Source: Eledone cirrhosa (lineage: Eukaryota). Taken from it: 64,000 nucleotides of DNA. Both the position numbers and the translations under genes were made by a program. Below are positions 42,908-46,921 of the stretch, piece by piece (within the stretch, counting starts at the first letter, position 1; each line of letters starts with the position of its first letter). Location of the stretch: the NCBI GenBank assembly GCA_964016885.1, contig OZ024743.1:202740001-202804000 (forward strand). Direction: 5' to 3'. The notes under the pieces are model-generated. The model worked only from the letters and a program-made list of their open reading frames with translations. It had not been told where the DNA came from and did not search any database.

Positions 42908-43509
42908 AATAAAAACATTCGATTCGTTTGCAATTATGCAAACAAGCCTCATTTTTAAAGCCATGTCAGTAGAATGAACACTTCATTCTTGCTCTTGTGT
43001 TGGCATGTAAACAGAACTGCAGAGACTAATGTTTCTGGGTACCACCCTTTTTCTAAAATATAGTGACTGATCGGCTTGCTTTGCATGTTAGCAGACTGGC
43101 TGATCAGTCAGATCTGCATATTAGTAGATCCACTGATCAGCCAGATTTGCATATCAGGAGTGTGGCCAGTCAATATCCTGTATACAAACGATAAATGTCC
43201 GGTTTGCCACATTCAAATAAAAAAAAGACATGTTTTTTTATGTAAGAAAGAGAATATATATATATATATATATATATATATATATATTTCGTTTCTGAAT
43301 TTGTTTAGCAAGATTCTTTATCTGAAATCGTGTGTTGAAACCGATATTGTTATACTTTGGGAGGGTCATGTTGCCAATAAGAAACACACGCACCAGTTGC
43401 TTTCACTTCAATTTATTATATATTTATAAATTTATAAATTTACAAATCTACAAACTTATAAATTTCTGGTTGGTTGGTTGGTTCCACAACCAGACAGTTG
43501 TTTATATAG

Positions 43510-43554
43510 AGTCATAGTCCTTTCGTCACACACTCTGCGACCTCTTCAGTGACC
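43510..43554 (-). ncRNA. Hammerhead ribozyme (hypermutated copy, core intact)
   Basis: Mirror of 45049-45093. Confidence 0.72.
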
Positions 43555-43911
43555 GGGGACTCCTTTCTTTGTCTCTGCGCCATTCCTTTCTTGTCCTACG
43601 CCATTTTGTCCCTGTGTGTGCGCCGCGCGCTCAGTCTGCGCATGCGCCACATCCGGGTGTCTGTGTGTGCCCGTGTTCACTCATCCATTTGTTTATTTAT
43701 TTACATGTTGTTGGCTGGCTGCCTGTTCCATGTGTGTGTGTGCCCCCATTCTGTCCCTAATTGTAAGTTGCGATGCCGCCGCTCCACCCACACCTTCTAT
43801 CCAATTTTGGTTGTAATTCTTTCATGCCTACTGCCTCTGCAATTTGCCTAAACATTGCATCCTCCCTGTGTGTGGATTCCATCTCTACTTCCATGTTCTC
43901 TAATCAACCAA

Positions 43912-44844
43912 AACAACCAAAAACAAATCCTCCATTCCCATTGTGCCAGGCCCATGGCTTCTAAACGTCTGGTCCACCGAGGCTCGGCCGTTTCGGACCA
44001 TGCCAAAATCGACGTACTGATTGCGGATTTGGTACGGGTGATGAGAAATGTGTCCCGCGTGTGCGGCCCCGAGGAGCTAGAGAGACACATACGGCACTTC
44101 ATCCACCGTGTGCGGTTCTCTGGCTACGATCAGAGAGATAGAGTCAGAGTGTATGGAGGAGCCAGAACCAAATAAGAAAAAATGGTGAATATTGACATAA
44201 ATGGGACCTGCCCCTTGTATAGGAGCAAATTTTGGAATAGAATAGAGAGAACTGGGAACGGGGCCGATAGAGTGAACTCATGGTATGATAGCAATAAGTG
44301 CCAGGGTGTGGTGTTCATCGATACAACCCCTGGAGGCGAGCTAGCCTACAAGTTTAGAGGGGCCCTAAATAAACATGAGCTCAATGTTGGGATAGTCGAA
44401 AGACCGGGTGCCTCCGTAAAAACACTTATTAGCAAGACATGCCCGTTCCAAAGACCCTCGTGTGTGGATAGGGAATGTATAACCTGTGAAATGAGCCCCC
44501 ATATTGGCTGTGAGGCTGGAGGTGTGGTGTATGGCATGGGATGTGCTGAGGGACAATGTAGAAACAAAAATGTGGTGTACATAGGTGGGACGGCTCGTGG
44601 TGTGGCGGAGCGGGTGGGTGGGCACTGGCGAGACCTTCAAGATAGTGGGGAATCATCTTTACTCTACCAACATGCTAAGATGGAGCACAAGGATGGATTA
44701 GAGAACATGGAAGTAGAGATGGAATCCACACACAGGGAGGATGCAATGTTTAGGCAAATTGCAGAGGCAGTAGGCATGAAAGAATTACAACCAAAATTGG
44801 ATAGAAGGTGTGGGTGGAGCGGCGGCATCGCAACTTACAATTAG
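43912..44844 (+). pseudogene. Hypermutated PLE thumb plus GIY-YIG
   Basis: HYAKPMTS>HCARPMAS, CKTRNVVYSIRC>CEAGGVVYGMGC, YIGETAR>YIGGTAR; TGG>TAA stop at 44173-44175. Confidence 0.9.
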
Positions 44845-45048
44845 GGACAAAATGAGGGCACACACACACATGGAACAGGCAGCCAGCCAACAACATGTAA
44901 ATAAATAAACAAATGGATAAGTGAACACGGGCACACACAGACACCCGGATGTGGCGCATGCACAGACTGAGCGCGCGGCGCACACACAGGGACAAAATGG
45001 CGTAGGACAGAAGAAAGGAAAGGCGCAGAGACAAAGAAAGGAGTCCCC

Positions 45049-45093
45049 GGTCACTGAAGAGGTCGCAGAGTGTGTGACGAAAGGACTATGACT
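45049..45093 (+). ncRNA. Hammerhead ribozyme (hypermutated copy, core intact)
   Basis: GGTCA-CTGAAGA-G-GTCGCA/GAGTG/TGTGAC-GAAA-GGAC-TA-TGACT. Confidence 0.72.
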
Positions 45094-46921
45094 ATATATA
45101 AACAACTGTCTGGTTGTGGAACCAACCAACCAACCAGAAATTTATAAGTTTGTAGATTTGTAAATTTATAAATTTATAAATATATAATAAATTGAAGTGA
45201 AAGCAACTGGTGCGTGTGTTTCTTATTGGCAACATGACCCTCCCAAAGTATAACAATATATATATATATATATGTGTGTGTGTGTGTGTGTGTGTGTGTG
45301 TGTGTGTGTGTGTGTGTGTGTGTGTGTGTGTGTGTGTGTGTGTGTGTGTGTGTGTGTGTGTGTGTGTGTGTGTGTGTGTGTCAGATTGGTGGCCGTAAAA
45401 GCCAGTTAAACCATTACTTACCAGAGTACACGATACTTGGGCTGGAAGAGTGGGTAAAATGAAAAATTCGGGACCCTGACGGCTGAGCTCCGGTCATTTC
45501 AACATCTAGATCCGTTCATATCTGTATATATATAATATTAGTACAGATTACATGATTAAGCATAGAATCTCTGATTTTTTTCCCTAAGAAGGATCATCTG
45601 AAAATTTAAGATAACTCTGCCAAGGATGAAAGCAAATTTTTTTTATTAAACTTTTAATCTGTAGTAATAATAAATATTTGTTTTATTGGTTTATATATAC
45701 TCGAATGGATTTTGGTCTTTGTATTTATTATTTGTCATAGTACCATTGATGTTGGATATTTCTTAAATCATTTTGCAATTATGAGAATTTAGAATTGTTT
45801 CATCATGAAAGAATTTTTGCTAAGATTTTGTTTGTCCCTAATTAAGTTATATTTCAGGTTTGTTATCGGTAAACCAGCCATTAGTTCTCGTTAATATCAT
45901 ACCTATATGACACAGATTCTGCCTGGAAAAACCTTTATTTTGAAATTATCTTAAATCTTTGAAATTTCCTCAAAATTGTGGATAGTAACGAAAGACTTGC
46001 CATTTGACACATCAACATTTTTTTGTTAATTTAGTCCCAGTCTCTCTGGTTTTCGGTCTTATAAATAGATTGAAGTTGGCCCTAACTAATCGAGGATCAG
46101 TCCAGCACCCTGCTCGTCTCATTCTACCCACATTTTAAAACTAAAATATAATCAATCATATGCCAATACTTACACCCTGGTTACATACATGTTGATATAT
46201 ATTTACCTGTTTATTATTACGCGTTGATGTTCAATGTAAAAAGGGAGTCCTGAAACACCATTTCAGTTGTAATTTCCTACACCATGTCTACCCAAGACCG
46301 GCCAGGTCAGGAAATCAGAACCAGCCCTCAAGTTGAAGTCGCCCATAATTACCTGCTTATCAGCACCTGGTTAATTTTTCACAAATTCTTAAAATTCGTT
46401 GTAAATTGTTCAATAGGTTTTTCTTAGTGAAACATTGTGGGAGGGTAAACCCTTATTATTCTATGGAATTTTTGAAATGAGATGGCATGATATATGTTTT
46501 GAGGAACCACAGGGATAACATTCAAATGATGACATATGAAAGTTTCTATTAGCCAGGCCAACATCTGATTCTATGCTTTGATCTTCTGCTACACCTTTCT
46601 AGAAGAAAGTGTAACCGTATCTAATTTCATTGAGCTGATCATCTTGGCGTTTCACAAGGATTGCCACTATAACTCTTCACACCTTAGTAAATTAATAGTG
46701 GACAATCCCATTATAAACATACACACACATCCATACATACACACACATATATATATATATGGGATAACAAGTTATTGTTTTAGGTAATCCAGTTAGAGGT
46801 TGTGAGTACTCTGAACTATGGATAGTTTTAACGTACGGCGTTGTTTGACTCAACTAGAGGTTACCTTAGTTAGGTAGCGAGTTTGCGAGAAGTCCCATGT
46901 AGGTTATTATTGGAGTAATAG

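Follow-up and report, generated by a model that had tools for sequence, protein, structure and literature searches.

Shared A-to-G editing marks point to one RNA template for both arms of an inverted Penelope-like insertion in Eledone cirrhosa

The stretch of DNA analysed here (the window) comprises 64,000 nt of the Eledone cirrhosa assembly GCA_964016885.1 (OZ024743.1:202,740,001-202,804,000, forward strand), and all positions are given in window numbering. Positions 43290-45259, termed locus A, hold a Penelope-like retroelement (PLE) copy that is truncated at its 5' end, hyperedited from A to G and arranged as two head-to-head arms within a (TA)n microsatellite. The left insertion flank is (TA)n target sequence (43254..43283), and tailed ends of the family abut (AT)n at nearly all loci. 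It is followed by AAATAT on the element strand (43284..43289, minus strand), identified by comparison of family ends as the first 6 nt of the next unit; the downstream start region of reverse transcription lies within this motif, with an ambiguous boundary to the (TA)n target. Non-tandem tailed ends of the family mostly read ...GAAACG AAATAT ATAT..., whereas tandem copies run on instead as AAATATCGTAAGCC.

The left arm, on the minus strand, opens with a 54-nt "tail" found in this arm only (43290..43343; unit 4009-4062), which is identical to the reference-unit tail at 54/54 positions and free of A>G change, and continues with the part shared by both arms (43344..43905; unit 3446-4008), carrying 53-54 A>G edits of which 50-51 also occur in the right arm. 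At the head-to-head junction, the 6-nt filler AACCAA (43906..43911) duplicates the adjacent 43915-43920; junctions elsewhere in the family show either fillers (1-20 nt) or overlaps (1-19 nt). The right arm, on the plus strand, consists of a unique 5' part (43912..44695; unit 2661-3445), the remnant of a 5'-truncated ORF in which 92 of 314 ancestral-A sites show A>G, and of the shared part (44696..45259; unit 3446-4008), whose 50-51 edits are all common to the left arm. It ends at ACAATAT without tail (45253-45259, plus strand), next to the right insertion flank, an (AT)7 followed by a (GT)n microsatellite (45260..45381). The right arm reaches 784 nt further 5' than the left (43912-44695). The original prediction, made from the sequence of the window, had reported the extra 3' tail, the filler duplication and a 5' difference of about 780 nt, and all three agree with these measurements. 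Within the plus-strand remnant, an adjacent GG>AA change created an in-frame TAA stop (44173..44175) where 29/29 reference copies have TGG, and the core of a GIY-YIG endonuclease (44521..44688), recognized in translations and by Pfam GIY-YIG on an unedited copy, was recoded by editing from YIGET...EH to YIGGT...GH. An unedited comparator, locus B, lies in the same window, with a tailed left arm (31256..33350, minus strand; unit 2060-4062) and a right arm without tail (33351..35397, plus strand; unit 2054-4008) that differ by 1 mismatch in 2041 aligned positions.

The element at locus A is of a known kind. Canonical EN+ PLEs are described, in passages of Craig et al. 2021 (PMC8557442) and Frangieh et al. 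2024 (PMC11167929), as having pseudo-LTRs, inverted 5'-truncated copies and a 30-40-bp "tail". Like these, the present family has a C-terminal GIY-YIG domain, tandem units, head-to-head truncated copies, a tail at one end and (TA)n targets; unlike them, as far as those passages go, its tail measures 54-60 nt rather than 30-40. Head-to-tail units with a period of 4062 nt were found at L042 and partial tandems (pseudo-LTRs) at L031, L034, L039 and L069, and inverted 5'-truncated copies adjoining the 5' end are present at 37 head-to-head junctions. The GIY-YIG match was marginal (PF01541, 22.7 bits against a cut-off of 22.6, for a 425-aa C-terminal piece); a Pfam scan of the whole 1238-aa ORF returned no family, GIY-YIG included, and a search of the PDB by sequence gave only a weak match to a GIY-YIG homing endonuclease (E 0.12). 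The motif YIGET...R...EH is visible in translation, with C-x5-C-x2-C upstream. RVT_1 had no Pfam hit on ORF pieces or on the whole 1238-aa ORF, and the translations show a YVDD motif. As a lead only, in Atlas look-alike clusters of residues 520-930, 16-82% of the members carried RVT_1, with DUF8422 and HTH_animal also present. The hammerhead of canonical PLEs had no Rfam match in this element (window at E<=0.1; 550 nt of the unedited unit at E<=10). A CUGAAGAG...GAAA string was noted by eye only.

Changes were polarised against 29 other, unedited genomic copies, using only columns with agreement in at least 25/29. The direction of change is A to G, since in the unedited copies the 1238-aa ORF is intact and the YIGET...EH motif has its canonical form. 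Between 43912 and 45259, 143 of 156 differences were A>G; 4 of the 156 fall in the non-homologous filler, leaving 143/152 real differences, and T>C was found at 0/275 T sites. The 5' neighbour of the edited A followed the order U>A>C>G with G depleted, which is ADAR-like (U 44/102, 43%; A 63/201, 31%; C 26/120, 22%; G 10/94, 11%; p=1.9e-6). Of the A sites with G as 3' neighbour, 36% were edited, compared with 24-30% of those followed by another base (p=0.18). The edits are clustered, and the edit zone ends near 45060; a simple hairpin between two 3'-intact copies would not predict such a stop, some 200 nt before the 3' end is reached. Judged from sequence, these strand-specific A>G clusters are template-borne changes, that is, ADAR-type A-to-I hyperediting recorded in DNA. 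ADAR-edited retrotransposon fossils were reportedly described in mammals by Knisbacher and Levanon in 2015, with strand-specific A>G clusters marking RNA editing before reverse transcription. Compared with those cases, the element class and the animal are different here, and each event is recorded twice per insertion, so that the edits become a lineage mark. Penelope transcripts appear as heavy ADAR substrates in a lizard, with the edits present in RNA reads, in a section of Porath et al. 2017 (PMC5625713); in contrast to edits there seen in RNA, those of locus A are fixed in DNA copies. The public run index listed no RNA run as carrying locus A. Contigs from three runs of one sample, possibly that of the assembly itself, contained the edited unique part at 44412-44927 with a word depth of about 6-18, against 10^3-10^5 for family-shared stretches in the same runs; 43678-43905 and the junction had no usable cover in public-run contigs, a gap that says nothing either way.

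The two arms form an inverted repeat in which 43905..43593 pairs with 44696..45008 (313 nt) and 43592..43344 with 45011..45259 (249 nt), giving 562 aligned positions, among them 6 mismatches, and a single gap of 2 nt opposite 45009-45010. The arms had been predicted to share almost all of their A>G changes, and in the shared part 51 sites were edited in both arms, 3 in the left arm only and none in the right arm only, among 262 ancestral-A sites (hypergeometric P=3e-51); a second alignment gave 50, 3 and 0. The three extra G sites of the left arm lie exactly where they had been placed, opposite 44850, 44855 and 44919. Four further arm differences had gone unlisted: an A in the right arm at 44962, where the left arm and all 29 copies have G, and, in the left arm, A>T opposite 45021, A>C opposite 45094 and a 2-nt deletion opposite 45009-45010. 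Non-A>G changes common to both arms numbered zero. The most likely reading, and in our view a probable one, is that both arms were reverse-transcribed from one ADAR-edited RNA, with the two sides of the target break each serving as primer for one arm; this template we infer from DNA alone.

The same arm-versus-arm comparison was extended to other head-to-head pairs of the family, drawn from the top hits of edited-query searches rather than from a census (first-look family candidates number at least 4209). In total, 37 head-to-head junctions were examined, from the window and 44 fetched loci, and pairs with at least 30 edits in the overlap were considered informative (n=5). Edits shared, left-only and right-only were 50/3/0 at locus A, 39/0/0 at L044, 108/4/2 at L045, 100/0/0 at L051 and 39/4/1 at L059. 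The four additional pairs were thus concordant as well, each with a pattern private to its own locus, and pooling the five gave 336 shared and 14 discordant edits at 350 sites (0-6 discordant per pair), pointing to one RNA in 5/5 informative pairs with inosine read as G in both passes at 336/350 sites. Among the other 32 junctions, none had one arm edited and the other unedited. Discordance between arms was 14/350 at edit sites versus 25/3172 at all other sites pooled. Baselines for transitions were a G/A discordance of 6/606 at G sites and a T/C discordance of 3/684 at T sites; by arithmetic from these, about 9 discordant A/G sites are expected versus 14 seen, so that no special process is needed. 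Two candidate causes of the three extra Gs of locus A, a further round of editing in the interval between passes and a misreading of inosine as A, were set aside as unneeded on the same figures.

Such agreement between arms could also arise if two RNAs of one unedited source had been edited at near-identical sites through near-deterministic editing of a duplex. Site preferences do exist, since separate edited loci share about twice the sites expected by random choice, but two such loci have in common only about half of the smaller edit set (median 0.53, maximum 0.75), and the Jaccard index over 55 pairs of separate edited loci had a median of 0.26 and a maximum of 0.60. The neighbour bias is moderate (11-43%) and about one quarter of the As are edited by no simple rule, whereas the 94-100% concordance of the five pairs would demand per-site editing levels of 0 or 100%. 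We regard near-deterministic editing as highly improbable, the least likely of the explanations weighed here.

The original prediction had left the choice between one RNA used twice and transcripts of an already edited master locus to a genome search. Across the 3.0-Gb assembly, no other place with the edit pattern of locus A was found among the best 40 candidates scored per search, the best other match being 89-90% identical as compared with 99-100% for its own arms. A 40-mer of the arms, allowing up to 3 mismatches, had two hits, both being the arms of locus A, and a 40-mer of the unique part matched locus A and, with 3 mismatches, another edited locus. For all five informative patterns, matches of at least 97% were confined to the pair's own two arms, followed by 85-90% for the next best (best 40 candidates, one assembly). 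This outcome favours a single RNA used twice, the half of the predicted alternative that is supported; the master, for which no second locus turned up, is disfavoured. An earlier hyperedited insertion, transcribed into two different RNAs templating the two arms, would have transcribable edited DNA to draw on, many hyperedited copies being present in the family, and L050 and L054, which share 70 of 93-94 edits (Jaccard 0.60), at first resembled such a lineage. Their identity is, however, only 85%, and in both loci one common 400-nt zone is near-saturated, so that we do not retain them as a clear lineage. A master could be lost, unassembled or on another haplotype, but such a loss would have to be assumed for each of the five patterns, and fresh transcripts should gain private edits where only 0-6 discordant sites per pair were seen. 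An edited master is thus unlikely.

Gene conversion between the arms after insertion, by which arms from different RNAs would later be made alike, had been named as a finding that would speak against a common template. Conversion can occur between inverted repeats separated by less than 1 kb, and at locus A the 784-nt unique part has 7 non-A>G events against 3 in the 2x562 nt of the arms. Against this process, no mosaic was found among the informative pairs, the limits of the edit zone coincide in both arms, and older pairs retain 2-6% divergence, with arms differing at up to 23/399 positions. In seven older pairs (L050, L051, L054, L056, L057, L059 and L064), 104/136 shared non-A>G changes recur at other loci and are not locus-private, so that they are variants inherited from the source, and locus A has no shared non-A>G change at all. 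Conversion would also have had to cover the whole overlap in 5/5 pairs and then halt. With this little support, we hold gene conversion to be improbable, to much the same degree as an edited master.

The tail of locus A follows a general rule. In 30/31 resolved pairs from the 37 junctions, the 54-nt tail is present on exactly one arm, its partner ending at ACAATAT (binomial P=1.5e-8), the sole exception, L068, being a 3.8-kb DNA palindrome that takes in the flanks; L043 is a tail-only stub. In the anole PLE, the element protein cleaves and extends both DNA strands in vitro and starts at two adjacent internal RNA sites, the intervening sequence being the tail (PMC11167929). The one-sided tail of the resolved pairs agrees with two start sites and two-strand extension as seen in vitro, and here, too, as in canonical PLEs, the tail is located where the ORF begins and is flanked by two start sites of reverse transcription (PMC11167929). 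A difference is that both start sites here end in AAUAU, matching the (TA)n target, whereas the anole element starts without homology to the cut DNA (PMC11167929). A stem-loop joining the two AAUAU motifs was rejected: around the tail, neither an 85-nt nor a 221-nt fold outperformed shuffled sequence (z -0.26 and -0.64).

By hand tally, the tailed arm was shorter in 12, longer in 16 and equal in 2 of the 30 pairs. The idea that the enzyme starting downstream cannot overtake the other, leaving the tailed arm shorter, fails on the 16 pairs with a longer tailed arm; in these, the downstream-starting enzyme would often have to pass a stretch already copied, which would call for strand displacement or sequential use of the RNA. 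The same tally bears on whether only one cDNA was made, the second arm arising by repair synthesis on the first arm or on free plus-strand DNA. The tail-less arm is contained in the tailed one in 16/30 pairs, including 3 of the 5 informative pairs (L044, L045 and L051), and such an arm could be made if a (TA)n end annealed to the AATAT inside plus-strand DNA; in those three informative pairs the tail-less arm may thus have been templated by DNA. The tail-less arm is, however, the longer one in locus A, in L059 and in 12/30 pairs overall, so that in these neither integrated arm templated the other; at locus A neither arm contains the other, as had been predicted in stating that neither could be a simple DNA copy of its partner. 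Moreover, the enzyme extends both strands on RNA in vitro (PMC11167929), and the literature on these elements, in the parts available, yielded no description of a free plus-strand DNA intermediate. DNA copying of a single cDNA is therefore very unlikely, marginally more so than an edited master or gene conversion.

Double copying of one edited RNA would proceed as follows. A sense transcript, double-stranded over unit ~2660-3810 with a putative partner, would have been deaminated by ADAR at about one quarter of its adenosines, and the element protein would have cut both strands of a (TA)n target. One 3' end would have begun cDNA at the AAUAU just downstream of the tail, yielding the left arm and stopping after 617 nt, and the other would have used the AAUAU within ACAAUAU, which lies 60 nt upstream in that same molecule, yielding the right arm and stopping after 1348 nt, with inosine presumably read as G in both passes. 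The cDNA 3' ends may then have been joined by microhomology with short slippage, leaving the filler AACCAA, each being completed on the other; the later arm differences (1.1%) would be ordinary mutations or copying errors.

In L1 twin priming, as reportedly proposed by Ostertag and Kazazian in 2001, both 3' ends of the target break prime reverse transcription on one RNA, and the resulting cDNAs are said to be joined by microhomology into inverted segments. The L1 cDNAs cover adjacent parts of the RNA once each, essentially without overlap and with an internal, variable annealing site for the second primer, whereas at locus A the same 562 nt were copied twice from two fixed starts 60 nt apart. 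As read from the arms, the mode at locus A thus works like twin priming but differs from the L1 form, since its cDNAs overlap by 562 nt.

The build-up of tandem and inverted PLE ends is termed still undefined in a passage of PMC8557442, and the only biochemical PLE system so far extends both DNA strands in vitro, with cellular events outside its reach (PMC11167929). Whether the two arms of one insertion share one RNA is not stated in the relevant parts of these two papers and is addressed here by the edit barcodes. A literature search of titles and abstracts found no paper using editing marks in this way for Penelope-like elements; the element is of a known kind, while the natural single-molecule tracer provided by its edits is new. 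Hyperedited copies privately mark their template RNA, so that the question of one or two RNAs per insertion becomes answerable from genome sequence, locus by locus. We lean, on balance, towards a wider reading in which every head-to-head Penelope-like insertion is one RNA copied twice by a two-headed complex that holds it across a (TA)n double-strand break, one cDNA starting per AAUAU (60 nt apart), with ADAR scars as natural in vivo proof and as a gauge of enzyme error. If true, this would give a single explanation for inverted pseudo-LTRs, for tails confined to one side and for stubs that consist of the tail only, such as L043. RNAs ruined by editing were still inserted, presumably in trans, in which case editing would act as a mutagenic brake on the family. 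The comparison of arms also bounds the in vivo error rate of the reverse transcriptase, and the two youngest pairs together had 1 arm mismatch in 3056 positions.

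The head-to-head pair designated locus A comprises a left arm (43290-43905, minus strand) and a right arm (43912-45259, plus strand) of one retroelement, separated by a 6-nt filler, AACCAA (43906-43911), and flanked at both ends by (TA)n, followed on the right side by (GT)n. With a natural 4062-nt unit of this Penelope-like family as ruler, taken from the genomic locus L042 where units run head-to-tail, the left arm corresponds to unit positions 3446-4062 and the right arm to 2661-4008. The 54 nt present on the left arm alone (unit 4009-4062) are hereafter termed the tail. Relative to 29 other copies, considering columns with agreement in at least 25 of the 29, the longer right arm differed at 156 positions, four of them in the filler, and 143 of the 152 real differences were A>G. 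These edits affected a quarter of the A sites (143/577), while T>C changes were found at none of 275 T sites. Editing depended on the 5' neighbour (U 43%, A 31%, C 22%, G 11%; p=1.9e-6), with no significant effect of the 3' neighbour, and fell to a single edit among the 57 A sites of the last ~150 nt plus tail. Because unedited copies retain an intact ORF and the endonuclease motif YIGET...EH, which reads YIGGT...GH in locus A, the changes ran from A to G on the sense strand. This pattern is the signature of ADAR on sense RNA, with ADAR as the putative enzyme. The sole tandem double change in the locus A copy was an adjacent GG>AA (44174-44175), converting TGG to a TAA stop.

Other hyperedited copies, retrieved with edited stretches as queries and hence a biased sample rather than a census, carried 66-175 A>G versus 0-11 T>C changes. 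The 3' limit of the edited zone differed per copy, from about unit 3330 to 3960 (L043-L059 and window 43912-45259), sparing the last 50-700 nt; a hairpin of two 3'-intact copies would not yield such variable ends.

The alignment of the two locus A arms spans 562 nt and contains 6 mismatches and a single 2-nt gap. Among 262 A sites, 51 A>G changes (50 in a second alignment) were present in both arms (P=3e-51), three were exclusive to the left arm (opposite 44850, 44855 and 44919) and none to the right, in agreement with the original prediction, which had reported nearly all A>G changes as shared and the same three extra G sites. No non-A>G change was common to both arms in these 562 nt, and the right arm alone had G>A at 44962. 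The left arm alone lacked the 2 nt facing 45009-45010 and carried A>T at the position facing 45021 and A>C at that facing 45094. Non-A>G events numbered seven in the 784-nt unique part versus three in 2x562 nt of arms, a marginal difference. The Jaccard index of the edit sets was 0.94 between the arms versus a median of 0.26 and a maximum of 0.60 between separate edited loci (55 pairs), the maximum belonging to L050 and L054, which are just 85% identical and both saturated in one 400-nt zone. Identical edits in two separately synthesised arms indicate that the edits were present in the template, and an error-prone polymerase as their source was ruled out on the same grounds.

With BLAST pieces of less than 76% identity discarded as members of a distant family, 37 head-to-head junctions were collected. 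Five of these carried 30 or more edits where the arms overlap, and every one of the five was concordant, namely locus A (50 shared, 3 left only, 0 right only), L044 (39, 0, 0), L045 (108, 4, 2), L051 (100, 0, 0) and L059 (39, 4, 1), or 336 shared versus 14 discordant edits when pooled. The arm-against-arm comparison proposed originally for other edited inverted copies thus gave the same outcome in L044, L045, L051 and L059, and edit-zone limits coincided between the arms of a pair. The remaining 32 junctions, whose arms share no more than 8 edits where they overlap, were uninformative, and none of them joined an edited to an unedited arm. The 14 A/G discordances at ancestral-A sites compare with about 9 expected, by our own arithmetic, from G/A discordance at ancestral-G sites (6/606) and T/C discordance at T sites (3/684) in the five pairs, so later transitions of the ordinary kind, or errors in copying, could account for the extra G's, including the three of locus A.

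An edited master locus, lost or unassembled, is an unlikely alternative source of the template. Searches for each of the five patterns in one assembly, with the best 40 candidates scored, recovered at 97-100% only the pattern's own two arms, the next matches being 85-90% identical; the search for further loci with the locus A pattern, which the original prediction had called for, accordingly returned none among these candidates. A 40-mer from the locus A arms occurred exactly twice with up to 3 mismatches, once per arm; for a 40-mer from the unique part there was one occurrence and, in another edited locus, a further hit with 3 mismatches. Gene conversion between arms could also equalize them but finds little support in older pairs, which retain up to 23 differences in 399 positions; in seven older twin-arm pairs, the arms share 136 non-A>G changes, of which 104 are also seen at other loci and are therefore inherited source variants. 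Copying of one arm from the other as DNA may apply to L044, L045 and L051, but is excluded for locus A and L059, where the tail-less arm is the longer and neither arm contains the other, as originally argued for locus A. Taken together, both arms of locus A were probably copied from one edited RNA, the reading first preferred.

In 30 of 31 resolved pairs (L038, L040, L061, L065, L066 and L069 left out), one arm extended to unit 4062, beyond which came AAATAT and (AT)n, and its partner stopped at ACAATAT (unit 4008), directly next to (AT)n (P=1.5e-8). The sole pair with two tailed arms, L068 (L068:57-8001), is a 3.8-kb palindrome (94%) that takes in non-element flanks and thus represents a DNA-level inverted duplication. 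The one-tail rule implies coupling between both ends of an insertion, each of two start sites being used once, in agreement with the two start sites and extension of both strands observed in vitro (PMC11167929), and is most simply explained by one RNA spanning the break. Both start sites end in AAUAU, identical in letters to the target. At L043, the second arm is a 52-nt tail-only stub (L043:5062-5113), inverted at the 5' junction of a single edited arm and 100% identical, which looks like a second cDNA halted where the other began. The downstream-starting enzyme reached further in 16 of 30 pairs. In an unedited pair of the same family (31256-35397), a near-perfect palindrome with 1 mismatch in 2041 positions, the arms span unit 2060-4062 with the tail and 2054-4008 without it; the two cDNA endpoints are no more than 6 nt apart, and in L051 they coincide at 3067, a pattern compatible with both cDNAs having run off a single RNA 5' end.

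We propose that a sense transcript would be hyperedited, a (TA)n site cut on both strands, and the two 3' ends would prime cDNA from a single RNA, each at its own AAUAU site; the cDNAs would stop at different places, be joined via microhomology or short fillers, and each be completed using the other. Across pairs, the junctions showed either an overlap (1-19 nt) or a filler (1-20 nt); contigs from public runs do not span that of locus A. The mechanism would work like L1 twin priming, except that here the same stretch is copied twice. What the natural edit barcode offers is a genome-wide test of an open question about mechanism, and therein lies its value, the class itself being known.

The family has thousands of copies (at least 4209 first-look candidates) in the 3.0-Gb source assembly and looks recently active. 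An intact copy, L031, contains a single 1238-aa ORF (L031:3553-7269) that has a long asparagine/threonine-rich low-complexity stretch in its N-terminal half. Its C-terminal piece narrowly passed the Pfam GIY-YIG threshold (22.7 versus 22.6 bits), with a YVDD motif upstream. No Pfam reverse transcriptase match was obtained with ORF pieces or the whole ORF; language-model look-alikes of the putative reverse transcriptase part, a lead only, were animal clusters with RVT_1, DUF8422 and HTH_animal. The element belongs, as an ordinary member, to the known class of endonuclease-bearing Penelope-like elements described in PMC11167929 and PMC8557442, sharing tandem units, head-to-head 5'-truncated copies, a one-ended tail, (TA)n targets and a tail inside the ORF start, the ATG lying 24 nt upstream of the first start site. 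For the hammerhead that is also part of that description, Rfam gave no match within the element; weak hammerhead matches below the Rfam gathering score lie outside, at 39848-39892 (minus strand, 24.6 bits) and 40453-40523 (plus strand, 26.1 bits). SINE-like direct repeats of ~130 nt at 42026-42156 and 42755-42888 (729-732 nt apart, 91-92% identical) are either two short-repeat copies or one local duplication. At 21277-22665 (minus strand), a copy from a distantly related family matches the reference unit at 71% identity across 1.4 kb.
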